Shown: piece by piece, positions 1,963-58,016 of the stretch | How the letters are laid out: each line of letters opens with the position of its first letter | Position numbering within the stretch: the stretch's first letter is position 1 | Source: Porphyromonas sp. | GTDB taxonomy: Bacteria; Bacteroidota; Bacteroidia; Bacteroidales; Porphyromonadaceae | Direction of reading: 5' to 3' | Assembly: GCF_030529325.1 (NCBI RefSeq) | Contig: NZ_JAUMXC010000001.1 | Span: 52,342-116,341 of the forward strand | Length of the DNA: 64,000 bases | Made by a program: the position numbers and the translations under genes | Notes under the pieces: model-generated | Told to the model about the DNA's origin: nothing | The model's database searches: none | The model's input: the letters and a program-made list of their open reading frames with translations, nothing else

Positions 1963-2302
1963 TTTCAAAATACAATTCTCTTTACAATGGCTCTTACCTC
2001 TACCGACCAAATTATATGGCAAGCGGGTAACAGTCTGCGTTAATAATCAATATTCAAAAACCTTTCACATCACAAAAATAAAGATTTTGAATGGCTTTGC
2101 ACAATAAAGAGACAAATATTTAATGAAAAAAATGTCTAATATTGGCAGAAATACAGATTAATGACGATATTATCGAGAGACAGAGTCTTTTATCAATAAA
2201 AACGGGCACTAATCCTCCCCTATCTTCCTTACCCACGAGCGCATATAGACACCTTGACAACCCATCCAGAAGAACGTCATCTTATCCTCTAAAATATTTT
2301 GA

Positions 2303-2310
2303 TAAATTTG
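2303..2310 (+). promoter_or_regulatory. Bacteroidetes-type -7 promoter box TAAATTTG (TAnnTTTG) about 40 nt upstream of the Hint-protein ATG
   Basis: Matches the sigma-ABfr -7 consensus TAnnTTTG; no other ORF in the 330 bp intergenic region. Confidence 0.3.
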
Positions 2311-2349
2311 CCGTATCAGATAGTGCAAACTCAAAAAATCAATACAACT

Positions 2350-3567
2350 ATGAAACGGGTTTACATCATTTTAGCCATACTCTTATCCATCCAGACAGGA
2401 TATGCCCAGATTAAGGAAATGCATCCTACTCAGACCGAACGATTGGATCTGAGCGCTAAGGGAGAAAAAGCTTTTGAAGCAAAGGCCAAAGCCATACAAA
2501 AGATCTACGAAAAACTGGAGAAAAAGGGTGGTTCGGAAGCCCTAACCAAAAAGGAAAGAGAACTCCTTGACAGCTACGACGACACAATAGACAGTTACTG
2601 GTCCATCATCGGGAGCGGATGTAGCTGGTACTGTGGAGGAGGTACCAAGAGCGTCACGGCCTCAAGCCACCTCAAGGCTCAAGGCTCAATAAACTATCTA
2701 CCCGACAACGCTCATGACCTTAACTATAAGAACGCATGGGCAGAAGGAGTCCCGGGCTACGGGATCGGAGAATACCTGTTGTACACCTTCGATGCAACAG
2801 CTCCACGGATCAATCAGATAATTGTAGTCAATGGTTATGTCAAAAGTAAGACCGCTTGGGAAAACAACTCCAGAGTCAAAAAACTGAAAGTATACATCAA
2901 CAATAAACCCTATGCCATACTCAACCTCAAAGACATAAGAGGATCTCAGACATTCGATGTCGAGCCCATAGGCAACACTCCGAGAGAGAACGAGGAGGAG
3001 ATGCAAAAGAAGGGAGACTGGACAATGAAGTTTGAGATATTGGAAGTATATAAGGGCGCAAAGTATGATGACGTCATCATATCGGAGATCTATTTCGATG
3101 GGTTGGATGTACACTGCCTTGCCAAGGGGACTCCGGTCCTTATGGCGGATATGTCTGAGAAAAACATCGAAGACTTGGAGATCGGCGACCTTGTTGCGTA
3201 TATAGATGGCAAGGAGTTCAAAACCGCACGTATAGAAAAACTTGCAAAAGCAACACATCACGGACTCGTCACCTACAGATTTGAGAGTGGTAGAAGCATA
3301 ACAACAACACAGGATCATCCATTCAGAATAGAAACAAAAGGTTGGTCATCCCTAAGCCCCGAAAAATCGGCTAGGTATAGAGGATTTGAAAAAGTAAGAA
3401 AGGTCGAAATAGGAGACGAATTCGCGACAGCATCAGGCAGAGACCGATTGATTGCAATCGAGCACCTGAACGAGACTCAAGAGACCTACACTATTTCGAA
3501 AATGAACAATGGAGATCACTTCATCGCCAATGGGCTGATCGTAGGGATCGAAGAACTCAACGAATAA
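2350..3567 (+). CDS. Secreted protein: signal peptide + coiled-coil/Lys-rich region + F5/8 type C (discoidin) domain + C-terminal Hint (Hedgehog/intein-like, BIL-type) domain
   Basis: MKRVYIILAILLSIQTGYAQ signal; VTASSHL...AWAEG...ISEIYFDG discoidin-like motifs; Hint block A C-LAKGTPVLMADMS (Cys codon 3115-3117) and block B TTTQDHPF (His codon 3316-3318). The protein ends right after the Hint domain. Confidence 0.6.
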   Translation: MKRVYIILAILLSIQTGYAQIKEMHPTQTERLDLSAKGEKAFEAKAKAIQKIYEKLEKKGGSEALTKKERELLDSYDDTIDSYWSIIGSGCSWYCGGGTKSVTASSHLKAQGSINYLPDNAHDLNYKNAWAEGVPGYGIGEYLLYTFDATAPRINQIIVVNGYVKSKTAWENNSRVKKLKVYINNKPYAILNLKDIRGSQTFDVEPIGNTPRENEEEMQKKGDWTMKFEILEVYKGAKYDDVIISEIYFDGLDVHCLAKGTPVLMADMSEKNIEDLEIGDLVAYIDGKEFKTARIEKLAKATHHGLVTYRFESGRSITTTQDHPFRIETKGWSSLSPEKSARYRGFEKVRKVEIGDEFATASGRDRLIAIEHLNETQETYTISKMNNGDHFIANGLIVGIEELNE

Positions 3568-3589
3568 ATCACACCGACAAAAATAATCA

Positions 3590-3630
3590 AAGGGGTGTTG
3601 CTGATACGAACTCGGCAGCACCCCTTTTGC
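3590..3630 (+). terminator. Rho-independent terminator-like hairpin after the Hint-protein gene
   Basis: AGGGGTGTTGCTG...CAGCACCCCT stem followed by TTTT. Confidence 0.45.
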
Positions 3631-3741
3631 ATAAACAAGATAATATCAGACAATTAAAATCCAAATCTCCACCTCATCGCTCTCCACAATCCGAACCTTC
3701 CCACAAAGGGTCAAAGAAAAGATAAAGAACCTCCCAAATCA

Positions 3742-3803
3742 ATGTGTCTAACTTGATGAATGAAGTTGTCTAACTTGATGCATCAAGTTAGACAACCTTT
3801 TTT
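3742..3803 (+). repeat. Copy 1 of a ~60 bp structured repeat family (GTCTAACTTGA direct units + 14 bp perfect hairpin GTTGTCTAACTTGA-tgca-TCAAGTTAGACAAC + T6)
   Basis: Near-identical copies at 10582, 22312, 49024 (inverted) and 57736. The apparent 61 aa ORF 3760-3945 is an artefact of the repeat sequence. Confidence 0.8.
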
Positions 3804-4044
3804 CGACAGGCTGAAACCTTTTTTTACAACGATGAACAAGGGTGTGAAGGAGGCTTATCAGGAAAAGGGTTATGTTTTCTTGATTTATCAGCAGGAGATC
3901 CCCCAAAATGACAAGATTTTGCACAGTCTACACATCAAAATCTAGGAAAGACAATCGGAAAGTCAGAAGCCCCTGCAAAACATTCAAAAAAACATGCTAA
4001 ATAATTTGGAATAGCCAAAAGTAACATCGAACTTTGTACAGAAA

Positions 4045-5403
4045 ATGACCGCATTAGCACCCTTAGCAGAAAGAATGCGCCCACAGACTCTTGACTCCTA
4101 TGTAGGGCAGGAGCACTTGGTAGCGCCGGGAGCACCACTCTATGAGATGCTCTCCGGGAGTATTTTGCGCTCATTTATCCTATGGGGTCCTCCCGGAGTA
4201 GGCAAAACAACGCTGGCTCACATCATATCCAAAACCCTTGGTCTCCCCTTTTACACGCTTAGTGCCGTATCATCCGGAGTGAAAGATGTAAGAGATGTCA
4301 TCAGGGTTGCAGAGGATAGCAAAGGGGGCTTATTTTCGGGTGGTACACCGATCTTGTTTATAGATGAAATCCATCGATTCAACAAATCCCAACAAGACTC
4401 CCTTCTTCATGCTGTAGAGAGAGGGGTTGTGACACTCGTGGGAGCAACCACAGAAAATCCTTCGTTTGAGATCATCCGTCCGCTCTTGTCCAGGTGTCGC
4501 GTATTTGTCCTGAAATCTCTGGACGCCAAGGCAATGAGACAGTTGTTGGACAAAACTATCGAGACAGACACGCTGATGCAGGCGTTTGACTTTGAGATAG
4601 TAGAAACGGATGCGTTGTTTGCTGCAGCAGCAGGCGATGCCCGAAAGTTGCTCAACATCATAGAACTGCTCACCCTCACGCCTGAAGCTCAAAAAACGAA
4701 GAAGGTAGTCATCTCCAACGAAAATGTAGCAAAACATCTCCAACAAAATCCGGCTGTCTATGACAAAGGCGGTGAGATGCACTATGACATCATCTCGGCG
4801 TTTATAAAATCTGTGAGAGGGAGTCATCCCGACGCTGCGCTGTATTGGTTGGCTCGGATGATAGAGGGAGGAGAAGATCCGAAGTTTATTGCGAGACGTT
4901 TGGTGATCTTGGCAAGTGAAGATATAGGATTGGCTAATCCCAATGCTCTCCTCATAGCTCAGGCCGCATTTGATGCAATAGAAAAAATCGGCTGGCCTGA
5001 AGGTCGCATTTCTCTCTCTGAAGCAACAATATACCTGGCAACAAGCCCCAAAAGCAACAGTGCTTATGAAGCCATAGACAAGGCCTTGGCTTACGTACGT
5101 GCCAACCCGGCAGCACCTGTCCCCATGCATCTGCGAAATGCTCCGACAGAGCTGATGTCAGAATTGGGCTATGGAGCCGGATATATCTATCCCCATCTGT
5201 ACAAAGGTAACTATGCCCCTCAACAATATCTCCCCGAAGAAGTAAAGGGGATAACGTTTTGGGAGCCGGCAGATAATATACAAGAGACTCGTTTGATGGA
5301 GTTTGTGAATAGCAGGAGACAGATGTATGGAGAGAAAACCGACATTTTGTCCCCAAGATCTCAACAAATGCACAGGGAGTCTGACCCAAATATCGAGAAC
5401 TAA
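4045..5403 (+). CDS. rarA: Replication-associated recombination protein A (AAA+ ATPase RarA/MgsA)
   Basis: N-terminus [19 protein letters not shown] and Walker [10 protein letters not shown], like E. coli RarA. Confidence 0.9.
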
Positions 5404-5446
5404 TTACTATATTTATAAACTAAAATTATCCAAACTATTTTCAACA

Positions 5447-6526
5447 ATGAAAAAGCACAATTTCAATGCAGGACCATGTGTCCTACCTCGCGAAGCAGTG
5501 GAATCTGCAATCGAAGCTATCCGTGATTTCGACAACACCGGTATCGGTATCCTTGAAATCTCTCACCGTACTCCGGGCTGGGAACGCATCATGAAGGAAA
5601 CAGCAGATCTATGGCGCGAACTCCTCAATATCCCCGACAACTACAAGGTACTTTTCCTTGGCGGTGGTGCAAGCACTCAGTTCTTCCATGTCCCTGCAAA
5701 CATCCTCGGCAAGAAGGCTGCTTACCTACAGACAGGTGTTTGGGCGAAGAAGGCTGCTAAGGAAGCTAAGTTCTATGGTGATGTAGAAATCGTTGCTTCT
5801 TCAGAAGATAAGAACTATTCTTACATACCAAAAGGATACACCATCCCTACTGATGTTGACTACTTCCACATCACTACAAACAACACTATCTACGGTACTG
5901 AAATCCATGAAGACATCGACAGCCCCGTCACTCTCGTTGCCGACATGTCATCTGACATCCTCAGCCGTCCTGTAGACGTAAGCAAGTACGGTATCATCTA
6001 TGGTGGTGCTCAAAAGAACGTAGGTCCTGCAGGTGTTACTTTCGTCATCGTACGCGAAGACCTCCTTGGCAAGGTAGAGCGCAAGCTCCAGACAATGGTG
6101 GACTACCGCACACACATCGGTGATGCTGAGAAGGATCGCTCAATGTTCAACACACCTCCTGTATTCTCTATCTTCGTAATGCACGAAACTCTAAAGTGGG
6201 TGAAGAACCTCGGTGGTCTTGAAGCAATGTACAAGATCAACAAGGAAAAGGCTGAACTCCTTTACAACGAAATCGACCGCAACAAGATGTTCGTCGGTAC
6301 AGCAGCTAAGGAAGACCGTTCACTCATGAACGTTTGCTTCGTAATGGCTGAAGAACACAAGGACAAGGAAGCTGCATTCATGGAATTTGCGAAGGCTGCA
6401 GGTATGGTAGGTATCAAGGGTCACCGTTCAGTAGGTGGTTTCCGTGCTTCTATCTACAACGCTTGCCCACGTGAGTCTGTAGAAGCTCTTGTTAAGTGTA
6501 TGCAAGACTTCGAAAAGCAATTCTAA
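5447..6526 (+). CDS. serC: Phosphoserine aminotransferase
   Basis: [18 protein letters not shown]... typical SerC N-terminus; start moved to ATG 5447 (the ORF-track upstream extension overlaps rarA). Confidence 0.9.
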
Positions 6527-6556
6527 AATCATACTAATCCGTAAAAATATTCAGTC

Positions 6557-7480
6557 ATGGCAAAAGTATTGATCGCAACGGAAAAGCCTTTCGCTCCCGT
6601 AGCTGTCGCTCAGATCAGCGAGATCCTTGAGGCAAACGGTTTCGAGGTAGTGAAGCTCGAAAAGTACACAGAGAAAAGTCAACTTCTCGAGGCTGTCAAG
6701 GATGTGGAAGGTATCATCGTACGTAGTGACATCATCGATGCAGAAGTCATCGAAGCAGCTAAGAACCTCAAGATCGTCGTGCGTGCAGGTGCAGGTTATG
6801 ACAATGTCGACTGCGAAGCTGCAACAAAGCACAATGTCTGCGTGATGAACACCCCTGGCCAAAACTCTAATGCAGTTGCTGAGCTTGTGTTTGCAATGCT
6901 GCTCTTCCACGTAAGAACAGGATTCAATGGCAAGACAGGTAGCGAGCTTATGGGTAAAAAGCTTGGTGTAATGTCTTATGGTAACATCGGACAGAATGTT
7001 GCGCGTATCGGTCAAGGCTTCGGTATGGAGGTCTATGGTTTCCAGAGATTGACTCCTGCGAACTACTTCGTTAAGGACGGCTTCAAGTTCTTCAACGACA
7101 GAGAGCTTATGTTCGGTCTTTGCGACGTGATGGTATTAGCTATGCCTGCAGCGGCAAACACAAAGAAGATGATCGACTACAATTTGCTAAGCCGTATGCC
7201 TAAGGGTGCTATCCTTGTGAATATCGCTCGTAAGGACCTCATCAACGAAGCTGACCTTCTCCGCGTTCTTGGTGAAAGATCTGACCTTACTTACCTCACT
7301 GACGTGAAGCCTGATTGTGAAGCAGAACTTGTCGAAAAGTTCCCTAACCAATACTTTGCAACTGCAAAGAAGATGGGAGCTCAGACTGCTGAAGCTAACA
7401 CAAATGCAGGTATGGCTGCTGCTAAGCAAATCGCAGCGTTTATCCAAACAGGCGAAGCTAAGTTCAAAGTCAATAAGTGA
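6557..7480 (+). CDS. serA: D-3-phosphoglycerate dehydrogenase (short form, no ACT domain) / 2-hydroxyacid dehydrogenase
   Basis: D-isomer 2-hydroxyacid dehydrogenase fold, 307 aa, directly downstream of serC. Confidence 0.75.
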   Translation: MAKVLIATEKPFAPVAVAQISEILEANGFEVVKLEKYTEKSQLLEAVKDVEGIIVRSDIIDAEVIEAAKNLKIVVRAGAGYDNVDCEAATKHNVCVMNTPGQNSNAVAELVFAMLLFHVRTGFNGKTGSELMGKKLGVMSYGNIGQNVARIGQGFGMEVYGFQRLTPANYFVKDGFKFFNDRELMFGLCDVMVLAMPAAANTKKMIDYNLLSRMPKGAILVNIARKDLINEADLLRVLGERSDLTYLTDVKPDCEAELVEKFPNQYFATAKKMGAQTAEANTNAGMAAAKQIAAFIQTGEAKFKVNK

Positions 7481-7588
7481 TCAAACTTACATCCATAGAA
7501 AATATTTGAGAAAGGGACGACCGGCAGTAAAATACTACTGTCGGTCGCACCTGCCTCTATTCCCATACATCACAAACAACAAAATCCA

Positions 7589-8845
7589 ATGGCAAGAGTA
7601 AAACCTTTTAGAGGATTTCGTCCTCCCCAAGATCTTGTTACACAAGTAGCATCACGTCCATACGACGTCCTAAATAGCGATGAAGCTCGCGAAGAAGCAG
7701 CGGGCAACGAAAAGTCTCTCTATCACATCATCCGTCCTGAGATCGACTTCCCTGTAGGAAAGGACGAACACGATGAAGATGTGTACGCTAAGGCTGCAGA
7801 GAACTTCAAGATGTTCCAAGACAAAGGCTGGTTGGTTCAAGACTCTGAAGCATGCTACTACATCTATGCTCAGACAATGAATGGCAAGACCCAGTACGGT
7901 ATTGTCGTGGGTGCGAACGTGGATGACTACATGAACAATGTCATCAAGAAGCACGAGCTCACTCGTAAGGACAAGGAAGAAGACCGCATGAAGCACGTAC
8001 GTGTCAACAACGCCAACATCGAGCCTGTATTCCTTGCTTTCCCGGACAATGCTGAGTTGGAGCGCATCATCAACAAGTACAAAGCAACTGAGCCTATCTA
8101 CGACTTCGTAGCTCAACTCGATGGCTTTGGTCACCACTTCTGGGTTGTCAATGACAAGAACGACATCGAGACTATCACCAAGGCTTTCGCTGCGATGCCA
8201 TACCTATACATCGCTGACGGTCACCACAGATCTGCAGCTGCTGCTCTTGTAGGTGCTGAAAAGGCAAAGGCGAACCCCAACCACACAGGTGACGAAGAGT
8301 ACAACTACTTCATGGCAGTATGTTTCCCAGCAAGCCACCTTACCATCATCGACTACAACCGTGTTGTTAAGGACCTTAACGGTTTGTCAGAAGCAGACTT
8401 CCTCAAGGCTCTTGAAAAGGACTTCATCGTCGAAGAAAAAGGCGCAGCAGAATACAGGCCTGCAAAGCTCCACAACTTCGCTCTCTACTTGGGCGGTAAG
8501 TGGTACTCACTCACAGCTAAGGAAGGCACTTACAATGACAACGATCCTATCGGCGTCCTTGATGTGACTATCTCGTCTAACCTCATCCTCGATGAGATCC
8601 TCGGCATCAGAGACCTCCGCACCTCTAAGAGAATTGACTTCGTAGGTGGTATCCGTGGTCTTGGTGAACTCAAGAAGCGTGTAGACAGTGGTGAAATGGT
8701 TGCAGCACTTGCACTTTATCCTGTGTCAATGAAGCAACTCATGGACATTGCAGACTCAGGCAACATCATGCCTCCAAAGACTACATGGTTCGAGCCTAAA
8801 CTACGCTCAGGTCTTGTAGTTCACACTCTTGAAAACGACAAATAA
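7589..8845 (+). CDS. DUF1015 family protein
   Basis: 418 aa; the conserved Bacteroidetes partner that follows serC-serA; starts MARVKPFRGFRP. Confidence 0.7.
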   Translation: MARVKPFRGFRPPQDLVTQVASRPYDVLNSDEAREEAAGNEKSLYHIIRPEIDFPVGKDEHDEDVYAKAAENFKMFQDKGWLVQDSEACYYIYAQTMNGKTQYGIVVGANVDDYMNNVIKKHELTRKDKEEDRMKHVRVNNANIEPVFLAFPDNAELERIINKYKATEPIYDFVAQLDGFGHHFWVVNDKNDIETITKAFAAMPYLYIADGHHRSAAAALVGAEKAKANPNHTGDEEYNYFMAVCFPASHLTIIDYNRVVKDLNGLSEADFLKALEKDFIVEEKGAAEYRPAKLHNFALYLGGKWYSLTAKEGTYNDNDPIGVLDVTISSNLILDEILGIRDLRTSKRIDFVGGIRGLGELKKRVDSGEMVAALALYPVSMKQLMDIADSGNIMPPKTTWFEPKLRSGLVVHTLENDK

Positions 8846-8857
8846 TAGATAAAGTCC

Positions 8858-8896
8858 GGATCAGGCTTCCCATGCTCACTCATGGGAAGCCTGATC
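8858..8896 (+). terminator. Terminator-like hairpin after the DUF1015 gene
   Basis: GGATCAGGCTTCCCATG-ctcact-CATGGGAAGCCTGATC, a perfect 16 bp stem. Confidence 0.45.
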
Positions 8897-8978
8897 TAAC
8901 AAAAGTCTTTATAATTTTATGAAGGCGATCTAAAAATAATTAAGAGAACGCCTCCCAACTTTTTTCATTTCACACATA

Positions 8979-10421
8979 ATGGAAACCAATAAAGTAAGGG
9001 TCGAAAGCGACCTTCTTGGTTCAAGAGAGCTTCCCAACAGCGTACTCTATGGGGTACAGACTCTCAGAGCGATGGACAACTTCAACATCTCTCCATTCAA
9101 GCTCAACAACTATCCCCTATTCATTCACGGCTTGGCTTGGACCAAGATGGGTGCGGCAAGAGCAAACGGTAAGCTCGGTGTCATCACACACGAGTGTGCT
9201 CAAGCTATCGAAAAGGCATGCCAAGAACTTCTCGAAGGCAAGCACCACGAGCACTTCCCCATCGACATGATCCAAGGAGGTGCAGGTACATCTACAAACA
9301 TGAATGCCAACGAGGTCATTGCCAACAGAGCACTTGAGATCCTCGGACACGAACGTGGACACTACAAGCACTGCTCTCCTAACGACCACGTCAACGCATC
9401 TCAGTCTACCAACGATGCTTACCCAACAGCCATCCACTTGGGTCTCTACGCTACTCACCTCCGCGTGATCGAGCATATGGAGTCGTTTGTGGCGGCCTTG
9501 AGAGTGAAGGGTAAAGAGTTTGCACATGTCATCAAGATGGGTCGCACACAGCTACAAGATGCTGTGCCTATGACACTTGGTCAGACATTCAACGGTTTTG
9601 CTTCGATCATCGAAGAAGAGATCCCTAACCTCCGCCACGCCGCAGATCAACTCCTCACCATCAACATGGGTGCTACTGCTATCGGTACAGGTATCTGTGC
9701 CGTACCGGGCTACGCAGAAGAGTGCACAAAGGCTATCAAGGAGATCACCGGATGGGACATCAAGCTTGCCGAAGACCTCGTAGGTGCGACATCAGACACA
9801 TCACACCTCATAGGCTACTCACAAGCCCTCAAGCGTATTGCAGTAAAGATCAGCAAAATCAGCAATGACCTCCGTCTCCTCTCATCAGGCCCACGTTGTG
9901 GTCTCGGTGAGATCGAGCTTCCTGCACGCCAACCCGGATCATCTATCATGCCGGGTAAGGTCAACCCTGTGATCCCCGAAGTAGCATCTCAGATCGCATA
10001 CAAGATCATGGGTAACGACGTGTGTGTCACCATGGCCGGCGAATGTGCACAGATGGAGCTCAACGCGATGGAGCCGGTCATGGCGCAGTGCTGTTTCGAG
10101 TCATCTGACTACCTCACGGTCGGTCTTGACACCCTCCGTGATCTATGTATCGTAGGCATCAAGGCGAACGAAGAGCGTTGCCGCAGACACGTCAGCGAAA
10201 GTCTCGGTATCGTCACTGCTCTCAACCCATACATCGGGTACAAGAACTCGACAAAGATCGCGAAGGAAGCCGTTGCGACAGGTCGCCCTATCACAGAGAT
10301 CGTCATCGAAAAGGGCATCCTCACTCAGGCAGAACTGGATATGATCCTCGCTCCTGAAAACATGATCAAGCCTGTACACCTTGACATCAAGCAATTGGAT
10401 AACCTCGGATACGAGGAATAA
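8979..10421 (+). CDS. aspA: Aspartate ammonia-lyase
   Basis: N-terminus collinear with E. coli AspA (RVESDLLGSRELP...YGVQTLRAMDNF) and fumarate-lyase signature GSSIMPGKVNPV. Confidence 0.85.
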   Translation: METNKVRVESDLLGSRELPNSVLYGVQTLRAMDNFNISPFKLNNYPLFIHGLAWTKMGAARANGKLGVITHECAQAIEKACQELLEGKHHEHFPIDMIQGGAGTSTNMNANEVIANRALEILGHERGHYKHCSPNDHVNASQSTNDAYPTAIHLGLYATHLRVIEHMESFVAALRVKGKEFAHVIKMGRTQLQDAVPMTLGQTFNGFASIIEEEIPNLRHAADQLLTINMGATAIGTGICAVPGYAEECTKAIKEITGWDIKLAEDLVGATSDTSHLIGYSQALKRIAVKISKISNDLRLLSSGPRCGLGEIELPARQPGSSIMPGKVNPVIPEVASQIAYKIMGNDVCVTMAGECAQMELNAMEPVMAQCCFESSDYLTVGLDTLRDLCIVGIKANEERCRRHVSESLGIVTALNPYIGYKNSTKIAKEAVATGRPITEIVIEKGILTQAELDMILAPENMIKPVHLDIKQLDNLGYEE

Positions 10422-10581
10422 TCCTTACGACATAATAAAAATCGGAAACAGGGTGTGCCATTAAATTGGTCACCCTATTTTCTTTTTCCTCTCTACCGCA
10501 AGCTGCCTACCTGACAAATATATCATCCAGACAACTCATACGACAAAAGACAACAAAGAGGGATATAAACCTGTACAATCG

Positions 10582-10645
10582 ATGTGCCTACCTTGATGAA
10601 TTAAGTTGTCTAACTTGATTCACGAGGTTAGACAACCTTTTTAAT
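10582..10645 (+). repeat. Copy 2 of the structured repeat family (degenerate distal arm: ...GTTGTCTAACTTGA-ttcacgag-GTTAGACAAC + T5)
   Basis: Same architecture as copy 1 but with a C in the first unit (GTGCCTACCTTGA), shared with copy 3. Confidence 0.75.
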
Positions 10646-22088: not shown

Positions 22089-22232
22089 CAGGGCAACCGC
22101 ATCAAAAATCTCGATAAAATACAAGTTGCTGATTTTCAAATGATTGCATTTTAGGATTATATTCAAAGATAAAGAATGCACTCAAAACCATGATTGATAA
22201 TCAGGCACTTACATTTTGATGCGATTGCCCTG
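22089..22232. mobile_element. 144 bp MITE with 19 bp terminal inverted repeats (CAGGGCAACCGCATCAAAA / rc CAGGGCAATCGCATCAAAA) and perfect 9 bp target-site duplication CAAACATTA (22080-22088 and 22233-22241)
   Basis: IRs and TSD read directly from the sequence; the same terminus CAGGGCAACCGCATCAA flanks the transposase remnant at 40495. Confidence 0.75.
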
Positions 22233-22311
22233 CAAACATTACCCCACCTTGAGTCAGAGAGTTTTTTTCTGAATAGGGTATCAAGAATGAGATGTACATC
22301 TCTCGAAATCG

Positions 22312-22373
22312 ATATGCCTACCTTGAGAAATGAAGTTGTCTAACTTGACGCATCAAGTTAGACAACCTTTTTC
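22312..22373 (+). repeat. Copy 3 of the structured repeat family (hairpin GTTGTCTAACTTGA-cgca-TCAAGTTAGACAAC + T5)
   Basis: Near-identical to copies 1/2/4/5; sits 193 bp upstream of the aminotransferase ATG. Confidence 0.8.
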
Positions 22374-22507
22374 AAGGCCTCAAAAGACATTGAAGCTCAA
22401 GGGGGTCGAAACATTTTGCCATTGAGCTATTACCCCACCATTAGTGAAATTTTCGGGTCTATCCGCCCAATACTTATAACAATATATGCATGACTGTTAT
22501 TTTTACG

Positions 22508-22515
22508 TATCTTTG
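22508..22515 (+). promoter_or_regulatory. -7 promoter box TATCTTTG upstream of the aminotransferase gene
   Basis: Matches TAnnTTTG about 50 nt upstream of ATG 22566. Confidence 0.3.
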
Positions 22516-46764: not shown

Positions 46765-46842
46765 TGTACGTTTTTTTTAAGATTAATGATTAATACATTG
46801 TTTATTCTCTATGGGCTACTTATTTCTTCCGAAATAAATCTG

Positions 46843-46930
46843 CGGAGAGAGCGGGATTCGAACCCGCGATACGCTTTTGGCGTATACACGCTTTCCAGGC
46901 GTGCCTCTTCAGCCACTCGAGCATCTCTCC
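46843..46930 (-). tRNA. tRNA-Ser (anticodon GGA), long variable arm; CCA not encoded
   Basis: Minus-strand GGAGAGATGCTCGAGTGG...CACGC-CTGGAAA-GCGTG...GCGGGTTCGAATCCCGCTCTCTCCG: 7 bp acceptor stem, T-loop GGTTCGAATCC, anticodon loop CT-GGA-AA. Confidence 0.85.
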
Positions 46931-48810: not shown

Positions 48811-49023
48811 TACAATTTTACTTAATGAGCGGTAAAGATAATAATCTTTGCAGGTACCGAACATCATTTGACAGGCAAAAAAAACTCTCCCCGGTGATGA
48901 GAGGCCCTATATTTTCAGGGACACATATGCTATAATATTTAGTCGGAGCATTGTAACTCCCCAAAATGCCCCACATTGAAGCTTACCGTAAACCACGTAT
49001 CCTCAAAGACTTGAAAGGGTATA

Positions 49024-49090
49024 AAAAAGGTTGTCTAACTTGACGTATCAAGTTAGACAACTTCATTCATCAAGTTAGACACCTGAATTT
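49024..49090 (-). repeat. Copy 4 of the structured repeat family, inverted orientation (rc: ...GTGTCTAACTTGATGAATGAAGTTGTCTAACTTGA-tacg-TCAAGTTAGACAAC + T6)
   Basis: Reverse-complement alignment to copies 1/3/5 is near-perfect; oriented toward ispB, about 212 bp upstream of its ATG. Confidence 0.8.
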
Positions 49091-49250
49091 CGACAGATGT
49101 ACGTCTTTTTTCTCAATATTTAATTTAGGATAGCCTCATAAGGAAGGACTACAAGTCAAATCGAGCCGATATCAAACAGCCCCATACTCCCATCACCTTG
49201 GACACCCGAGTATTTGCACTCTGCAGTTAAGATATATCAGTCAATTATAC

Positions 49251-49258
49251 TATCTTTG
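49251..49258 (+). promoter_or_regulatory. -7 promoter box TATCTTTG upstream of the metalloprotease gene
   Basis: Matches TAnnTTTG 43 nt upstream of ATG 49301. Confidence 0.3.
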
Positions 49259-49300
49259 TGCTCCATACAATAAAAAAATTAAATTCAATCTTACTTATCA

Positions 49301-51919
49301 ATGAAACATCGTTATCTACTACCCGCATTGCTCATCGCAGCAATGGGTAGCATGGAGATGTCTGCACAGAGCGTGACTGTAGACCAGCAGTCCTGCTCCA
49401 AGATCAAGAACATCTTCAAGAGCAAGCGTCGTAAGGCAAAAGAAGACGCACAGAAAAATCAAGGTAAAGCTCCATCTCCGGAAGCCAAGAAGTACTCCGA
49501 ACTCACTTCCGGTGCGGAAATCACGGATGGACTTGTACGTACGATCCTCAAAGATGACAAGCTATACTTTGAACTCAAAGACTCTATTTACGGCAGAGAT
49601 CTACTCCTATCCAATCGTATCTCAAGGACCTCGGACAACAATGATTTTGTTGCCGGACAGATGGTTTCCGATCCTATACTATTCAGACTTGAGAAACAGG
49701 GCAAAAAAGTATTTATGTACTATGTCCCTACACACAACTCGATAGACAGGACAGATCCCATAGCCCCTTCCTTTGATAAAAACTACAGCAAGCCTATCCT
49801 CAGGGTATTTGATGCCGTTGCTACCAACGAACAAAACACTGTCATCGACATGACGGCTTTCTTCATGGGTGCCGAGATGAGCATCTCGCCTTTGGCAAAA
49901 AATGGAAAAAACAATGGTGCTCCCATCCCCGGTGCTTCATACTTCAGCAGTGTAAAGAGCTTCCCAAAGAACGTGGAAGTGAAAAATGTCCTTGCTTATC
50001 GCAATGCAGATCAACCATATACGATCGAGACACACAGATCTGTGGTACTCCTCCCGGAGCAACCTATGCAGATGAGACTTCAAGACAATAGAGTCGGTTA
50101 TTTCTCTTCCGGTCGTCTTCAGTTTACAACAAACAAAGACAAACTCGAACGCTATCAGGTGATCCATCGTTGGAGACTCGAGCCAAAAGACTCGGCAGCC
50201 TACTTCCGTGGTGAACTCGTAGAGCCTGTCAAGCCTATTGTATTCTACGTTGATACGGTATTCCCTGAGAAATGGAAAGGCGCTGTGAAGGCGGGTATAG
50301 CAGACTGGAATATCGCATTTGAAGAAGCCGGGTTCAAAAATGCCGTCATCGTCAAAGATTATCCTTCAGCAAAGGAAAATCCGGAGTTTGATCCGGATGA
50401 CCTACGCTACTCTTGCGTAAAATATGCTACGACAACCATCGCCAATGCAATGGGTCCAAGCTATGTAGACCCTCGTAGCGGTGAAATCCTCAACGCAGAT
50501 GTAATCTGGTATCACAACATCACCGAACTCCTCCACAACTGGAGATTTACCCAGACTGCAGCCGTAGACAAGCGTGTCCGTACAACTGTCTTCCCCGATG
50601 AAGTAATGGCAGAGTCTATGAGATACGTGGCAGCACACGAAATAGGTCACACACTCGGACTCATGCACAACATGGGAGCTTCTTACGCATTCACAGTCGA
50701 GCAGTTGAGAGACCCTGCATTTACCCAAAAATATGGTACGACACCAAGTATCATGGACTATGCTCGTAACAACTTTGTTGCTCAGCCCGGAGACTTTGAA
50801 AAGGGTGTCAAGTTGACCCCACCTCTCGTCGGTGTATACGACATCCATGCGATCAACTGGGGATATCGTCTCATCCCTGATATCACCAACTTCAAAGATG
50901 AGTACACAACCCTCTCATCTTGGATTGAGGCAAAGAAACATGACCCCAAATATGTATTTGGAGCTCAGCAAATGACAATACTCGACCCGACAGATCAGAC
51001 AGAAGACTTGAGTAACGATCACATCAAGGCGGGAGACAACAGCATCTCCAATCTCAAGATCATCATGAAGCACTACAAAGAGTGGAAGAGTGAACCGGGT
51101 AGAAGAGCAGACAACCTCCAACAGACGCACAAGGAAATCGCAACACAGTTTGTCCGTCACCTTCAACACGTAGCTCCTTACATAGGTGGTCGCGAGTACT
51201 ATGAGAACAGACAAGGCGATGGCAACTATCCTGTAACACACATCGACAAGGCACGTCAGAAAAAGGCAATCAAGTGGCTTGTAGGTCAATTGAGAGATAT
51301 GGACAAGTGGCTATTTGACGCAGAAACCCTACAGAGCTACGACATGTCGGCGTCAGCGTTTGATGCTGTGCTATATTACAGCATTATCCCTTCGGTAATA
51401 GGCAACATGTTGGCTCCACACCGCCTTCTCGGTGTCGTAGAGGGTAATCGAGCAAAGAAGAGCACCAAGTATCCGATAGAGGAAATGCTCAACGATGCAA
51501 CTCGTGAGATATTCGCTGCATCTTACTCAGGACGCAAGCTATCTGATGCTGATATAGCTATCGAAAATACAGGTATCAGCACGCTTATCGCATATGGATC
51601 ACCCAAACCTGCTGCAAGCACACAAGCTCGTAAACGCTTGGAAGAAGCTGCAGAATCTGTAGACAAACTCTTCAGCACAATGCCTTGCCACAGCTGTCAC
51701 TCTTGCGCGTTGGGCAAGTCTGAAGACAACACATCTTTCTTCAGAATGACATTGATACCTGCTACACCTGCAGAGTACGAAACAAAGCCTGCCCTACTCT
51801 CTCGCCTCCACGAGGTACGCCGCCTGTACCGTCAGCGCGCTGCCTCGGCAAAGGACACAAAAACTCGCAACTACTATAAGTTGTGGGAAGAAAGATTCAA
51901 GGAACTTTTTGACAAGTAA
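49301..51919 (+). CDS. Secreted zinc-dependent metalloprotease (Met-zincin, DUF4953/DUF5117-type)
   Basis: Signal peptide; zinc motif VAAHEIGHTLGLMHNMGAS; 872 aa. Confidence 0.75.
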   Translation: MKHRYLLPALLIAAMGSMEMSAQSVTVDQQSCSKIKNIFKSKRRKAKEDAQKNQGKAPSPEAKKYSELTSGAEITDGLVRTILKDDKLYFELKDSIYGRDLLLSNRISRTSDNNDFVAGQMVSDPILFRLEKQGKKVFMYYVPTHNSIDRTDPIAPSFDKNYSKPILRVFDAVATNEQNTVIDMTAFFMGAEMSISPLAKNGKNNGAPIPGASYFSSVKSFPKNVEVKNVLAYRNADQPYTIETHRSVVLLPEQPMQMRLQDNRVGYFSSGRLQFTTNKDKLERYQVIHRWRLEPKDSAAYFRGELVEPVKPIVFYVDTVFPEKWKGAVKAGIADWNIAFEEAGFKNAVIVKDYPSAKENPEFDPDDLRYSCVKYATTTIANAMGPSYVDPRSGEILNADVIWYHNITELLHNWRFTQTAAVDKRVRTTVFPDEVMAESMRYVAAHEIGHTLGLMHNMGASYAFTVEQLRDPAFTQKYGTTPSIMDYARNNFVAQPGDFEKGVKLTPPLVGVYDIHAINWGYRLIPDITNFKDEYTTLSSWIEAKKHDPKYVFGAQQMTILDPTDQTEDLSNDHIKAGDNSISNLKIIMKHYKEWKSEPGRRADNLQQTHKEIATQFVRHLQHVAPYIGGREYYENRQGDGNYPVTHIDKARQKKAIKWLVGQLRDMDKWLFDAETLQSYDMSASAFDAVLYYSIIPSVIGNMLAPHRLLGVVEGNRAKKSTKYPIEEMLNDATREIFAASYSGRKLSDADIAIENTGISTLIAYGSPKPAASTQARKRLEEAAESVDKLFSTMPCHSCHSCALGKSEDNTSFFRMTLIPATPAEYETKPALLSRLHEVRRLYRQRAASAKDTKTRNYYKLWEERFKELFDK

Positions 51920-51949
51920 TTAAAGGCAAATATTCCTTAAACATACGTA

Positions 51950-51990
51950 AAGGGCATGCCAAATATGTTGGCATGCCCTTTCTTAATTTT
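51950..51990 (+). terminator. Rho-independent terminator after the metalloprotease gene
   Basis: AAGGGCATGCCAA-atatg-TTGGCATGCCCTT + TCTTAATTTT. Confidence 0.6.
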
Positions 51991-52324
51991 GTAAACATCC
52001 CTCCTCAATACAGGAAATTTTACTCTCCTACAAAAGCAAAAGATTGAATAAACCGGCAAGGAGGGGAAGCAAAATAAATTTCCGCAATACGCCGACATAG
52101 AGAAGTGTTAAACATCTAATTATCTAACTACACATGCTCTGAATAAGGAATTATAACCATGAAACTAAGCCCATAAAAAAACATTTATTAGCAACAATCA
52201 GGTTATCCTCACTACTCACCCCCCGAGTAGACTTACGAGCATTTTACAATAAGTGACATAAAAATATTTAACACACATCTTAAATTTAAAACAAAAGAGT
52301 AGCCGAAAAGTGGAAAACTTTTAC

Positions 52325-52332
52325 TACTTTTG
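52325..52332 (+). promoter_or_regulatory. -7 promoter box TACTTTTG upstream of nrdA
   Basis: Matches TAnnTTTG about 76 nt upstream of ATG 52408. Confidence 0.3.
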
Positions 52333-52407
52333 AGCTCCAAATGCCTATATGGTCAACCGTATATTGATAAATTTAATAACACACAACGTGCTGAAAAACC
52401 CCGAACA

Positions 52408-54915
52408 ATGAAGATAATTAAGCGAGATCAAAGACTCGAAGACTTTACCTTTGACAAGATAAAAAGAGCGATAAACAGAGCGTTTACAGCCTGCGGAGAA
52501 AAGATATCCAAAAGTGCACTCAATCTCATATGTGACGAACTTTCAGCTCAGATAGGAGACAAGGAATCCATCTCTGTGGAGACCATACAAGACATGGTCG
52601 AAACGGAGCTCATGAAAAGAGGCTACTACAAGGTAGCTAAAGCCTATATCCTCTATCGAGACAAGCGCAGTGAGTTCAGAGCGGTCATCGAAAGCTTCAG
52701 ACAAGTCATTGACGACGAAGAAATCATCCGTCTACTAAAGGATGTTCAGGCTTCTTATAGCGCACGTCAATACAGCCTTGATCTTCTGCTTGTGAAATTT
52801 CAATCCTTCTATAAGGAAGATGTCAACATTCTCGATACTCTCATCAAGGCCTCTGTCGAACTTATCACTCCGGAAGCACCAAACTGGGAATTCGTATCTT
52901 CTCGCCTACTGCTCCTAAAGTCTGAGAGAAGCATACGTCAGCACGAACAGCACCTTGGCTTTTCTTCTTTTTACGACAAATTACGCTACCTCACAGATGA
53001 GCGTCTTTATGGTGCTTATATGCTTGATGCTTATACCTTTGAAGAAGTCAAGGAACTTGAAGAGTACCTTGATCACTCACGCAATAACTTATTGACATAT
53101 AGTTCGCTCCACCTTATCTGCAAGCGTTACCTCATCACCAATCACAACCATCAGTTGCTTGAGAGACCTCAAGAGATGTTTATGGGTATCGCCATGCACT
53201 TGGCTATCCCCGAAGGTGATAACAAAGTTGAATGGGCAAAGAAGATATATGACATCATCAGCACCCTCAAGGTTACGATGGCAACTCCAACAATGAGTAA
53301 TGCCCGTAAACCGTTGAGCCAGTTATCAAGTTGCTTTGAGGATGTCATGCCTGATAGCCTTATAGGGATATACAGGACCATCAATAACTTTGCACAAGTG
53401 TCTAAGTTTGGGGGCGGTATGGGGATCTATATGGGTAAGGTCAGAGCCGTTGGTAGTGACATCCGCGGCTTCAAGGGTGTTGCCGGTGGTGTCCTTAAAT
53501 GGATCAAGTTGTGTAACGATACGGCAATAGCGGTCGATCAACTCGGGGTACGTCAAGGCTCGGTAGCTATCTATCTCGATATTTGGCATAAGGACATGCC
53601 AGAATTCCTACAGATACGTACCAACAACGGAGACGACCGCATGAAGGCCCATGATGTATTCCCGGGCGTTTGTTTCCCGGATCTATTCTGGCGTATGGTA
53701 CAGGAAGACATTGATGGTAACTGGTACATGATGTGTCCACATGAAGTTCAGACGGCTAAAGGATATAGCTTGGAAGACTTCTATGGTGAGGAATGGGAGC
53801 GTCGCTATCAAGAATGTCTGCAAGACAACCGTATAGCAAAGCGTGCAATCAAGGTAAAAGACCTTGTGCGCCTCTTGATCAAGTCTGCTGTCGAAACAGG
53901 CACACCGTTTATCTTCAATAGGGATACGGTCAACAGACTCAATCCAAATAAACACCAAGGTATCATCTACTGCTCAAACCTCTGTACGGAGATTGCTCAA
54001 AATCAAAAGGCAATCAAAACAAAACAAAGATATGTCAAACTCGAAGATGGGCAAGATATCGTCGTCGAGGAAACCATACCGGGAGATTTTGTCGTGTGCA
54101 ACCTTGCATCATTGGTACTTGGTAATATCAACGTCAAGAATGAACAGGAGATGCAACAAGTCATCAGTACTGTTGTCAGAGCTCTTGACAACGTCATCGA
54201 CCTCAACTTCTATCCTATCCCTTATGCAGAGATAACCAACCAACGTATGCGTCCGATAGGGCTTGGTACAAGTGGTTATCATCACTTATTGGCTAAGCAC
54301 AACATCCGTTGGGAGAGTGACGAGCACTTGACATTTATGGATAAGGTATTTGAAAAGATCAACTACTACGCGATCCAAGCGTCATGCCAACTTGCAGAAG
54401 AAAAGGGCGCTTACTCACACTTCAAAGGTAGTGACTGGGACAACGGTAACTATTTCACTGATCGCAACTATACGAGCGACCGTTGGAAAGCACTCTCTGC
54501 CGATGTTCACGCAAAGGGCTTACGCAACGGCTATCTCATGGCTATTGCTCCCACAAGTTCGACTTCAATCATTGCCGGAACTACGGCAGGAACAGACCCG
54601 GTAATGGATCGCTACTTCCTTGAGGAAAAGAAGGGAAGCATCGTTCCTCGTGTTGCGCCACAACTCTCAGACGCTACATTCTGGCTCTACAAGACAGCTC
54701 ACCAGATGGATCAAAACTGGATCATCGATGCAGCTGCTGTCCGTCAACGCCACTTGGATCAATCTCAATCGGTCAATCTCTTTATCGATCAGACCGTCAC
54801 TTTCAGAGGTGTCATGGATCTCTATCTGAGAGCATGGAGCAAAGGTGTCAAAACACTATACTATGTACGAAGCAAATCCCTCGAGGTGGAAGAGTGTGAG
54901 ACTTGTTCAGCTTAA
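52408..54915 (+). CDS. nrdA: Ribonucleoside-diphosphate reductase class Ia alpha subunit (with ATP-cone)
   Basis: ATP-cone MKIIKRDQRLEDFTFDKIKRAI; catalytic-site region CSNLCTEI; start at 52408 rather than the ORF-track 52330. Confidence 0.9.
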   Translation: MKIIKRDQRLEDFTFDKIKRAINRAFTACGEKISKSALNLICDELSAQIGDKESISVETIQDMVETELMKRGYYKVAKAYILYRDKRSEFRAVIESFRQVIDDEEIIRLLKDVQASYSARQYSLDLLLVKFQSFYKEDVNILDTLIKASVELITPEAPNWEFVSSRLLLLKSERSIRQHEQHLGFSSFYDKLRYLTDERLYGAYMLDAYTFEEVKELEEYLDHSRNNLLTYSSLHLICKRYLITNHNHQLLERPQEMFMGIAMHLAIPEGDNKVEWAKKIYDIISTLKVTMATPTMSNARKPLSQLSSCFEDVMPDSLIGIYRTINNFAQVSKFGGGMGIYMGKVRAVGSDIRGFKGVAGGVLKWIKLCNDTAIAVDQLGVRQGSVAIYLDIWHKDMPEFLQIRTNNGDDRMKAHDVFPGVCFPDLFWRMVQEDIDGNWYMMCPHEVQTAKGYSLEDFYGEEWERRYQECLQDNRIAKRAIKVKDLVRLLIKSAVETGTPFIFNRDTVNRLNPNKHQGIIYCSNLCTEIAQNQKAIKTKQRYVKLEDGQDIVVEETIPGDFVVCNLASLVLGNINVKNEQEMQQVISTVVRALDNVIDLNFYPIPYAEITNQRMRPIGLGTSGYHHLLAKHNIRWESDEHLTFMDKVFEKINYYAIQASCQLAEEKGAYSHFKGSDWDNGNYFTDRNYTSDRWKALSADVHAKGLRNGYLMAIAPTSSTSIIAGTTAGTDPVMDRYFLEEKKGSIVPRVAPQLSDATFWLYKTAHQMDQNWIIDAAAVRQRHLDQSQSVNLFIDQTVTFRGVMDLYLRAWSKGVKTLYYVRSKSLEVEECETCSA

Positions 54916-56042: not shown

Positions 56043-56090
56043 AACAAGAAACCCCACTCAGATATGTTCTGAGTGGGGTTTCTTGTTTTA
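56043..56090 (+). terminator. Strong rho-independent terminator after nrdB
   Basis: Perfect 19 bp stem ACAAGAAACCCCACTCAGA-tatgt-TCTGAGTGGGGTTTCTTGT followed by TTTA. Confidence 0.75.
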
Positions 56091-56188: not shown

Positions 56189-56611
56189 TTGTGGCAGTGT
56201 GGTGTACTGAAAAAAGTTGACAGTAGCGGAGGAGAAAAAATCAAGAACCCACTAACCAAACATTTCAGTATTCCGGAGCGCCTTCACATTCTCGAAGAAT
56301 ATCTCGGCTCGGACCTCAGCAAGTATGCCATCGAGAAGAAATATGGCTTGAATCGGGGGAGTATTTACTTTTGGCTTCGTAAATTCGGGTTATCAGACAA
56401 GCTTAAAACAGAAGTCATGAAAACTCCGACAGATGATAATGCGCTCAGCATGAGCGAACAAAAGGAATTAGCACGTCTTCGCAAGGAGATCCGTCAGCTC
56501 AGAGCAAAACTCAAACACGAGGAGCCGGGACACAAAGCCTACAAGTTGCTCGTTGAATTGGCAGAAGAAACCCACGGCATCGAGATAAGAAAAAACTCCG
56601 AAGCCAAGTAG
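56189..56611 (+). CDS. IS3 OrfA (HTH transposase N-terminal part); true start uncertain
   Basis: HTH region LHILEEYLGSDLSKYAIEKKYGLNRGSIYFWLRKFG and leucine-zipper-like C-terminus; the ORF-track start is a TTG lying partly outside IR-L. Confidence 0.65.
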   Translation: MWQCGVLKKVDSSGGEKIKNPLTKHFSIPERLHILEEYLGSDLSKYAIEKKYGLNRGSIYFWLRKFGLSDKLKTEVMKTPTDDNALSMSEQKELARLRKEIRQLRAKLKHEEPGHKAYKLLVELAEETHGIEIRKNSEAK

Positions 56612-57713
56612 TTCAGCGTTTGTCAGAGGACAATCGGCCTCATCATCCTGTCACTCTTCTCTGCGAACTGCCCGGCTTCAGCCGTCAGGCTTACTATAAA
56701 CGCAACCTCAGGACTCCAAGTCCCTACGAATCAGAGATCTTGGAGACAAGCATCATCCTCTACTTCAGGCATTTGCGAAGGAGAGAACACCTTCCCAAAG
56801 CCGGCTTCAGGGAGTTGTTCCTGCTGTGCAAAGAATACTTCGGGGAAAAGTTCCTCATCGGCAGAGATCGCTTCTGTGCCCTGATGAGAGCCAATGAGTT
56901 AATACTTCGTAAGCGACGTTATCGCCCCCATACAACCAACTCCGACCATCACTTCCACAAATACGAAGATCTGCTCAATACCGAATCGAAATATGAGTCC
57001 AAGAAGCCGGGAGATCTCCTTGTGGCTGACATCACTTACATCTCCTATCGTGGCGGTTTCGCCTGTTTATCCCTCCTTACAGATGTATACAGCCGTTGTA
57101 TCGTGGGGCACTGTCTGCACCCGACACTTGAAGTGGAGGGCTGTATCTCGGCCCTCGAACAAGCATTTGACTTCTATAAAAGACATAAGACAGACATCAA
57201 AGAAATGATCCGTCACAGCGACCGGGGAGTACAGTACGCTTCTACCCGGTACACGAAACTTCTCACCGATCGGGGGGGGCCGCATCAGCATGACCCGTAC
57301 GGGAGACCCGCTTCATAACGCCCCGGCCGAAAGGATAAACAACACCCTGAAAAACTCGTGGTATATCTCCTCCGAGGACCAAACACTCGAGGAAGCAAAG
57401 CAAGCAGTGGCACGAGCCGTCCGGATGTACAACGAAGCTCGCCCACATCAGTCTATCGGAGGACGGACACCCATGCAACTATTGCAGAAAGAAGTTCAAA
57501 ATCTCCTTGTCCCCACCAAAGGACAAGATTGGACAATCTCTCCTAAGCTCTATGCAATGATGAATCCCGAACAAAGAGCCAAATTTGCATCGTGTCAACG
57601 TTTATGGCCCTAACCAAAGGACGCCGTAAACCCAAGACTATTATAAAGATCTATTGTGTAAACTAAGTATGAAACTTGCCTCCACTACTGTCAACTTTTT
57701 TCAGTACACCACA
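56198..57713 (+). mobile_element. IS3-family insertion sequence (1.5 kb) with 35 bp terminal inverted repeats TGTGGTGTACTGAAAAAAGTTGACAGTAG(C/T)GGAGG
   Basis: IR-L 56198-56232 and IR-R 57679-57713 (1 mismatch); orfA/orfB organisation with -1 slippery heptamer A_AAA_AAC at 56590-56596. Confidence 0.8.
56620..57613 (+). pseudogene. IS3 OrfB (DDE integrase core) disrupted by a +1 frameshift in a G8 homopolymer at 57272-57279
   Basis: Two ORF-track pieces, 56620-57318 and 57290-57613; an intact reading ...KLLTDRG-RISMTRTGDPLHNAPAERINNTLK is restored if the G tract is 7 instead of 8. Confidence 0.75.
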
Positions 57714-57735
57714 GGGTAAGGGACTTTCTAAATCA

Positions 57736-57793
57736 AGGTGTCTAACTTGATGAATTAAGTTGTCTAACTTGAGAGATCAAGTTAGACAACTTG
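57736..57793 (+). repeat. Copy 5 of the structured repeat family (hairpin GTTGTCTAACTTGA-gaga-TCAAGTTAGACAAC, no T-run)
   Basis: Lies 22 bp after IS3 IR-R; 224 bp upstream of the rocD ATG. Confidence 0.8.
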
Positions 57794-58016
57794 TTCTACC
57801 CCCTCCGACAACATCCTCTACACCGACAGAATAAGGACAAAACACATAAAAACTCCCCATACCCCGAAAACACGGATCTACGATTGACAATTAGACTTTA
57901 GAACGGCAATAAAACAGCCCGGATTATTGTTTTATTAGATGATTTTATATACCTTGTAAAGGTTTATTCAAAACCACGAAGATATTTAACATCACATTAA
58001 AACAAAATACTAAACT

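Follow-up and report, generated by a model that had tools for sequence, protein, structure and literature searches.

The short repeat that recurs in a 64,000-nt stretch of a Porphyromonas sp. contig (NZ_JAUMXC010000001.1; the window) probably represents a clade-specific, rapidly evolving, non-coding family of REP/MITE-like intergenic hairpin repeats, with an apparently regular spacing to gene starts that arises from placement constraint and a small sample. It is most likely an ordinary intergenic repeat of a known kind and not a promoter control element. An earlier note on this DNA had read the spacing as the sign of a cis element tied to promoters, for example an operator array or an upstream terminator or insulator.

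Structure and copies of the repeat

Alignment of the copies shows a unit of ~90 nt that consists, in this order, of an A-rich leader (AGAAAAGATAAAGAAC...AAATCA), box A, box B, an inverted box C and a T-run. Boxes A and B are direct 12-mers (TGTCTAACTTGA) in the same orientation with a 22-nt spacing, and box C is the inverted 12-mer, which lies past a 4-nt loop after box B and is followed by CC and five to seven T. When the copies were folded, box B and box C formed a perfect or near-perfect 32-nt hairpin of 14 bp, with an AT-rich stem in which 5 of the 14 pairs are G-C. The hairpin energies of the copies range from -12.8 to -22.6 kcal/mol, compared to -14.7 to -28.9 kcal/mol for the real terminators in the same gaps. 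The GC content of the copies is 34-42%, and stop codons were seen by eye in every frame.

The copies in the window were defined by a repeat search, by alignment and by a covariance model run with all filters off. These approaches confirmed that the repeat family described earlier is real: the window has exactly five copies (c1 to c5, Table 1) that score 101-115 bits, with nothing further above noise, and every exact TGTCTAACTTGA 12-mer of the window falls inside them. With two copies outside the window, c0 and c6, there are seven in the ~77 kb examined, all of them intergenic and in long gaps between transcription units, with flanks that are mutually unrelated. The stem-loop and the adjoining T-run are present in six of the seven, the T-run of c5 being degenerate (CTTGTTCT). 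Among terminator-like sites of the first 20 kb, a mechanical terminator scan put c1 and c2 at the top. Contigs assembled from short reads of this species start or stop inside copies, and two Logan contigs break within c5; thus, the repeat is frequent enough to fragment assemblies. Such contigs were also the source of c0 and c6. One copy per 11 kb would amount to about 200 in the whole genome, with ~2.3 Mb assumed as its size from other Porphyromonas.

Table 1. Repeat copies and neighbouring features in the window.
Feature	Position	Strand	Remarks
Intrinsic terminator of the gene upstream of c1	3589..3629	+	AAAGGGGTGTTGCTG..CGGCAGCACCCCTTTTG; -27 kcal/mol
c1	3715..3803	+	112.9 bits; hairpin -19.3 kcal/mol
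c1 parts	box A 3745-3756, box B 3767-3778, box C 3783-3794, T-run 3798-3803	+	
aspA intrinsic terminator, before c2	10450..10487	+	-14.7 kcal/mol
c2	10555..10642	+	101 bits; hairpin -16 kcal/mol
c3	22285..22372 (core 22312-22373)	+	106.7 bits
-7 box of the aminotransferase gene	22508..22515	+	TATCTTTG; 58 nt before ATG; 135 nt past the c3 end
c4	49023..49111	-	114.7 bits
-7 box of the Met-zincin gene	49251..49258	+	TATCTTTG; kept in four related lineages, unlike the element
nrdB intrinsic terminator, before the insertion sequence and c5	56050..56089	+	-28.9 kcal/mol
IS3-family insertion sequence	56198..57713	+	35-bp terminal inverted repeats, 97% complementary
c5	57714..57798	+	105.6 bits; hairpin -22.6 kcal/mol

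With all seven copies considered, 94.9% of the box B:box C helix is paired. c0 carries two double compensatory changes in this stem (T-A to C-G, T-A to G-C), the only ones found, and 7 of 500 shuffles reached the covariation value of this helix. The stems are near-invariant across copies, unlike the 4-nt loop, which varies among most of them (CGCA is common to c3 and c0 only). Stems that hold while loops vary indicate that pairing is constrained, be it to allow a copying mechanism or to serve a host function. In addition, c0 has a first small hairpin (ATCAAG-GTAGACTC-CTTGAT; L098:8328-8427) with a loop that is, at 6 of 8 positions, the reverse complement of the loop in the c5 counterpart (ATCAAG-GTGTCTAA-CTTGAT, within window 57730-57756). 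Judged from these sequences, the loop reversal between c0 and c5, together with a flipped box A-box B module in the related locus L099, suggests stem-mediated inversions.

The minimum-free-energy folds of c1 and c4 use a pairing of box A with box C. This pairing, together with the conserved terminator-like 3′ end, would be expected of small RNA genes or cis leader/attenuator RNAs that end at the hairpin and in which boxes A and B compete for box C; paralogous sRNA families have been described in Bacteroides, and RNA genes of this kind would fit them. However, covariation is absent from the box A:box C helix and its pairing does not exceed that of shuffles, so an attenuator-like switch was rejected, and the apparent box A:box C compensation in c2 is missing in c3 despite an identical box A variant. 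Further points against RNA genes or leaders are that the regions upstream of the copies have no conserved TAnnTTTG promoter, that the element has no Rfam match, that the downstream genes are unrelated, and that the real promoters are downstream of the element. We consider an origin as RNA genes or attenuators very unlikely. Only a tRNA-Ser passed the Rfam gathering threshold in the window; this tRNA-Ser (GGA), at 46842-46930 on the minus strand, is the sole RNA gene that Rfam or ARAGORN gave there, and permissive Rfam scans of two gaps returned chance-level hairpins only.

Genomic sites of the copies

The neighbouring genes named in the earlier note (rarA, aspA, a CobD-like aminotransferase gene, the polyprenyl synthase gene ispB and rocD) proved to be correctly identified, and its distances from T-run to ATG were reproduced. 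c1 lies 147 nt past the stop codon of its upstream gene and 241 nt ahead of the rarA ATG (4045). c2, which has the box A variant TGCCTACCTTGA and an 8-nt hairpin loop, is in a convergent gap after aspA (stop 10421), where it is flanked by the aspA terminator and by the terminator of a convergent K-channel gene; as had been noted, it has no downstream gene. c3, 193 nt ahead of the ATG at 22566, occupies the 749 nt that separate the divergent DUF6935 (-) and aminotransferase (+) genes. c4 is also in a divergent gap, between the polyprenyl synthase gene (-) and a Met-zincin gene (+). The end of c4 is 212 nt from the ATG at 48810 and 155 nt from the longest-ORF ATG at 48867, and a start at 48810, an internal ATG, is consistent with NCBIfam profile alignments. 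c5 is downstream of nrdB, with an IS3-family insertion between them, and ~221 nt ahead of the rocD ATG (58017). Outside the window, c6 lies ~4.4 kb past the right end, with its T-run 155 nt ahead of the ATG of a 936-residue gene. c0 is a diverged copy ~4.6 kb past the left end, also in a convergent gap, with the terminator of a nitroreductase gene on one side and a terminator after a tRNA-like 3′ end on the other; ARAGORN called no tRNA on the truncated tRNA-like contig end beside c0. The long gaps of the window that have no element measure 190-690 nt (mostly 270-410 nt), and the element-bearing gaps are similar in size after ~90 nt is subtracted.

Two further observations concern the surroundings of c1 and c3. 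The protein of the gene upstream of c1 (2299-3567) has a NADase-type glycan-binding domain as well as weak matches to an intein-containing radical SAM family (residues 271-360) and to Hom_end_hint (Logan annotation), and may carry a Hint/intein-like segment. Around c3, an imperfect direct repeat of ~35-40 nt (22212-22248 and 22411-22440, ~192 nt apart; ACATT..TTGCC..ATTACCCCACC, including one exact 11-mer) could stem from a duplication local to this site.

The IS3-family element has inserted precisely at the 5′ edge of c5. Its transposase is broken up into three ORFs (HTH, 56189-56611; rve, 56620-57318; rve_3, 57290-57613), so the insertion sequence is probably decaying, and no target-site duplication of this insertion is visible. 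In E. coli, IS3-family elements target REP sequences, and the insertion at c5 is reminiscent of this. In the left flank of the insertion sequence, a box-like sequence (ACAGTCTAACTTACAA, 56174-56189) has the 9-mer GTCTAACTT in common with the boxes. With the insertion sequence removed, it would sit 46 nt, or two 22-23-nt periods, ahead of box A of c5, and it may be a decayed extra box or the remnant of a second copy.

Terminators and promoters near the copies

Like an intrinsic terminator, the repeat has a stable stem-loop that is directly followed by five to seven T and is oriented with local transcription, and as modelled its hairpin would terminate read-through if it were transcribed. In contrast to intrinsic terminators, its stem is AT-rich, one sequence is reused at many loci, and most copies lie past a gene's real terminator or in divergent gaps. 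GC-rich canonical terminators precede c1, c2 and c5 at gene ends and c0 after the tRNA-like gene, and these separate terminators led us to reject the repeat as the primary terminator of its upstream gene. Since all four of these upstream genes in the window species are already terminated, insulation is probably a side effect. Hence, of the terminator or insulator proposed earlier, the structural side stands (a hairpin with a T-run, a stability like that of nearby terminators and two compensatory changes), but a need for it at genes that already have terminators does not.

A domesticated boundary terminator or insulator would have been selected to stop read-through or to stabilise upstream mRNA 3′ ends, like REP/BIME of E. 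coli. The conserved hairpin and T-run, the compensatory changes, the variable loops and the terminator-like stability are in line with such a role, as is the clustering of next-ATG distances in the window species. Moreover, all copies with a visible same-strand upstream gene (c0, c1, c2, c5, the copy after aspA in a sister lineage, and copies in L102, L103 and L095) are co-oriented with that gene, so the element would stop read-through if transcribed, and in three relatives the element after Golvesin_C starts at the stop codon with no intervening terminator. However, four copies come after genes that are already strongly terminated, and for c3, c4 and the L102 copy at 7318, which occupy divergent gaps, there is no upstream transcript to stop. 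In c5 the T-run is degenerate and some copies of relatives have none, relatives run the same promoters without the element, and about 9 of the 14 long gaps in the window do not have it. Selection as a boundary element is thus possible but, in our view, unlikely.

Recognisable -7 boxes of the Bacteroidota type (TAnnTTTG, with at most one mismatch) sit 30-75 nt ahead of the ATGs, which leaves 100-185 nt from the end of the element to the core promoter downstream. No motif common to the element-to-ATG spacers was found beyond chance; there is only a promoter-linked T-rich stretch near -70 to -90. Between c4 and the start of the polyprenyl synthase gene, a second terminator-like hairpin (48877-48904, minus strand; CCTCTCATCACCGGGGAGAG followed by eight T) lies just upstream of the likely -7 box of that gene. 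A permissive Rfam scan gave no match for this hairpin, and it may end a small unannotated transcript.

Distance and orientation of the copies

In the window, the distances to gene starts cluster nominally beyond chance. A spread of 48 nt or less in four gaps gives p ~0.004-0.012 under uniform random placement, for a statistic that was chosen after inspection of the data, and the five gene-facing distances (155-241 nt) give p ~0.005-0.03, a value that varies with the exclusion zones assumed. Some positional preference within the window species may therefore be real. With more copies counted, the uniformity weakens or is lost: c6 and c0 depart from it as described above, the copy before rarA in the sister lineage ends 161 nt from the ATG and not 241 nt as in the window, and over all copies, relatives included, the distance to the next ATG ranges from ~104 to 435 nt.

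The claim that the copies point at gene starts fared in a similar way. It holds for four of the five copies in the window, but with seven copies the count is five of seven (p = 0.23). Since c3 and c4 would have a gene start ahead of them in whichever orientation they lay, their gaps being divergent, orientation is little informative, and only c1 and c5, in tandem gaps, bear on the question.

Orthologous promoters in related lineages

RocD and the Met-zincin protein of the window match NCBI proteins of a Porphyromonas sp. at 100% identity. The closest named species is Porphyromonas cangingivalis, with identities to RocD of 91% (amino acids) and ~79% (nucleotides). At rocD, four lineages share just the last ~110 nt before the ATG, with the promoter included, and no element was found in the rocD upstream region of P. 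cangingivalis and two other relatives. The sister lineage has 98% amino-acid identity in AspA and 87-90% nucleotide identity, and its contig spans rarA to aspA with both ends within element copies. Upstream of rarA, homology with this lineage stops ~75 nt before the ATG. Its copy after aspA starts 258 nt past the stop codon, compared to ~134 nt here, and differs in gap sequence, terminator and box A type. Ahead of the Met-zincin gene, ~110 nt before the ATG are common to five lineages, including the -7 box TATCTTTG. In this gap, c4 is on the minus strand in the window, the diverged copy of L102 and L103 is on the plus strand ~320 nt from the ATG, and no element was found in P. cangingivalis or L099.

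L102 and L103 have three further copies, at the start of the L102 contig, after Golvesin_C and after nrdB. The Golvesin_C copy is directly past the stop codon and ~110 nt before the next ATG. The nrdB copy is 256 nt past nrdB, on the side where c5 lies, and ~435 nt before a different downstream gene; an nrdB-following copy is thus found in two lineages with differing downstream genes. In the copy at Golvesin_C, P. cangingivalis combines the exact leader GAAAAGATAAAGAA...AAATCA with the arms GTCTTACGAC and GTCGTAAGA, and L099 has boxes that are flipped relative to the leader. The diverged copies of L102, L103 and P. cangingivalis have the leader GAAAAGATAAAGA..AAATCA in common with boxes that are different or flipped, and L102 has three direct boxes compared to two in the window copies. 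Several copies of relatives match the model weakly (E 0.001-0.5) and were accepted on leader and box words together with an orthologous position. As these loci show, position, box sequence and even box orientation vary between related lineages.

This variation bears on the reading of the spacing as a promoter-associated cis element, which we do not retain: the spacing varies by lineage, the spacers are free of shared motifs, and the genes are functionally unrelated. The operator array that had been suggested would consist of three 12-mer boxes as sites of a transcription factor or nucleoid protein that acts on the downstream promoters. Half-sites that are conserved around four variable central nucleotides, a 22-nt period that equals two helical turns, and the five of seven copies that face a gene start would all agree with it. 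However, the element ends well upstream of the -7 boxes, orthologous promoters are conserved without it or with it placed differently, and c0 and c2 are in convergent gaps. In addition, ~90 nt are near-identical, including the parts outside the boxes, as in copy-and-paste and not in convergence of sites, and the stem changes in c0 keep the pairing and not the box sequence. We found no overlap with or adjacency to the core promoter, no orthologous conservation and no regulon-like set of genes, and an operator function is most improbable.

Element copies bound both sides of the blocks rarA..aspA (3715-10642) and Met-zincin-nrdA-nrdB (49023-57798), and a block of rocD, DDAH, aldehyde dehydrogenase and tricorn genes (57714 to L001:10748) is also bounded by copies on both sides. 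The gene orders Met-zincin-nrdAB and rocD-tricorn are kept in P. cangingivalis (L083, L095), where the outside neighbours differ. For rarA..aspA, the same genes are upstream of aspA in the contigs of relatives that are long enough (L086, L087 and L090); in P. cangingivalis the K-channel gene has other neighbours, and the homologue search returned no close aspA match from this species. In the sequences compared here, element copies coincide with apparent breaks in gene order.

Distribution of the family

The exact hairpin pattern had no match in 185,579 GTDB species genomes (one per species) or in JGI metagenomes, and a looser box A-box B pattern matched, in the metagenomes, only unrelated 21-30-nt tandem repeats that resemble coding repeats. 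The covariance model found no matches in 760 kb of other Bacteroidales loci, a BLAST search with c1 gave no match in plasmid and phage collections, and a literature search with the box sequence returned unrelated primer-like strings only. The diverged copies in related lineages exclude a species-specific distribution and show that the family is clade-wide and fast-changing. By these sequence searches, its range appears confined to one Porphyromonas clade that comprises the window species, the sister lineage, and P. cangingivalis and its relatives.

Comparison with known repeat families

REP, BIME and REPIN sequences are short high-copy palindromes outside genes, mostly downstream of them in unidirectional or convergent gaps; the REP units occur as direct or inverted pairs that fold into larger hairpins, form species-specific families, have proposed side roles in termination and mRNA stabilisation, and are targets of IS insertion (Di Nocera et al. 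2013, PMC3733652). The Porphyromonas repeat resembles them in having a palindromic unit of the required 20-40 bp and many copies outside genes, and in the IS3-family element that abuts c5. Among its seven copies, a small sample, four follow a co-oriented gene, and two, unlike most REP units, are in divergent gaps. It differs from REP in that there is no unpaired GTAG or CGTC tag on either strand (the stem GTTGTC...GACAAC is preceded by ..GAATGAA and followed by CTTTTT), and in that a conserved leader of ~30 nt and a T-run belong to the unit. A tagged REP was therefore rejected. Besides the IS3-family domains, no transposase was found among ten ORFs by Pfam or ten element-flanking genes by NCBIfam, and no RAYT gene was seen among the scanned ORFs of the window.

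The BrickBuilt MITE of P. gingivalis and P. gulae is strictly intergenic, 49-591 nt from its neighbours, and modular, with a leader, 23-nt direct repeats and a tail; it has a restricted host range and sits after the natural terminator of the upstream gene, which is left undisrupted (Klein et al. 2015, PMC4596501). Its leaders and tails reach ~300 nt, it has up to 22.8 tandem repeats, and it shows bidirectional promoter activity (PMC4596501). Compared by description, the present repeat is likewise from this genus, intergenic, modular and of limited range, lies past the terminator of the upstream gene where there is one, and has a period of 22 nt and not 23 nt. However, the IS5-type terminal inverted repeats of BrickBuilt (GAGACCTTTGCA and TGCAAAGGTCTC; PMC4596501, Table 2) are in no aligned copy, and the repeat consists of two direct boxes, one inverted box and a terminator-like tail. 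BrickBuilt was rejected since the IS5-like GAGACCTTTGCA terminal repeats are missing.

Like MITEs in general, the repeat is small, AT-rich, non-coding and multicopy, with differences in presence and absence among relatives. In contrast to MITEs, its inverted repeats (boxes A and C) sit inside a longer conserved unit, and the sole insertion sequence of the window has unrelated ends (TGTGGTGTACTG...). Inspection of the boundaries of six copies gave no consistent direct repeat, and a classical MITE was rejected for want of a target duplication or a matching insertion sequence. The Correia repeats of Neisseria and the BOX and RUP repeats of Streptococcus pneumoniae are intergenic repeats of ~100-150 nt that are internally complementary and often near gene starts; they are co-transcribed with their neighbours and can alter the expression or termination of these. 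Correia elements end in inverted repeats of 26 bp and duplicate a TA target, and BOX elements have boxA, boxB and boxC modules of 45-59 nt. These features were not seen in the Porphyromonas repeat, which has no sequence similarity to either.

Proposed origin and meaning

We infer from the sequences that the repeat family is mobile. A copying process directed at the hairpin would have spread or homogenised it, with a transposase or recombinase encoded elsewhere and acting in trans, or gene conversion, as candidates; no mobilising enzyme was found in the ORFs scanned, and a search of the copies gave neither defined ends with terminal inverted repeats nor a duplicated target site. Copies would persist only where the upstream terminator and the downstream ~100 nt of promoter and leader stay intact. 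This survival constraint alone would leave copies ~100-300 nt from the next ATG and so produce the apparently regular spacing. Where read-through transcription reaches a copy, its hairpin and T-run would provide a further intrinsic terminator as back-up, a side effect of their shape, although the contrast between stem and loop could reflect selection for a host function.

A more specific version, which we regard as rather unlikely, is that the repeat is a Bacteroidota analogue of REP/REPIN that has no GTAG/CGTC tag, is moved or homogenised by a hairpin-recognising enzyme and has been co-opted as a boundary element of transcription units. The flips of boxes and loops at orthologous sites would then be the result of cruciform- or hairpin-driven recombination in vivo. 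Since copies are at the edges of the conserved blocks (rarA-aspA, Met-zincin-nrdAB and rocD-tricorn), they might mediate genome rearrangement.

If the reading as a clade-specific intergenic hairpin repeat is right, the repeat fragments short-read assemblies of these Porphyromonas species, and annotators could take it for a regulatory site or a terminator. It would add a hairpin repeat with a leader and no tag to the few intergenic repeat families of Bacteroidota, and it would provide a handy case of fast turnover, with boxes replaced or flipped at orthologous sites. It would not imply a new regulatory mechanism, and back-up termination at operon borders would be possible.
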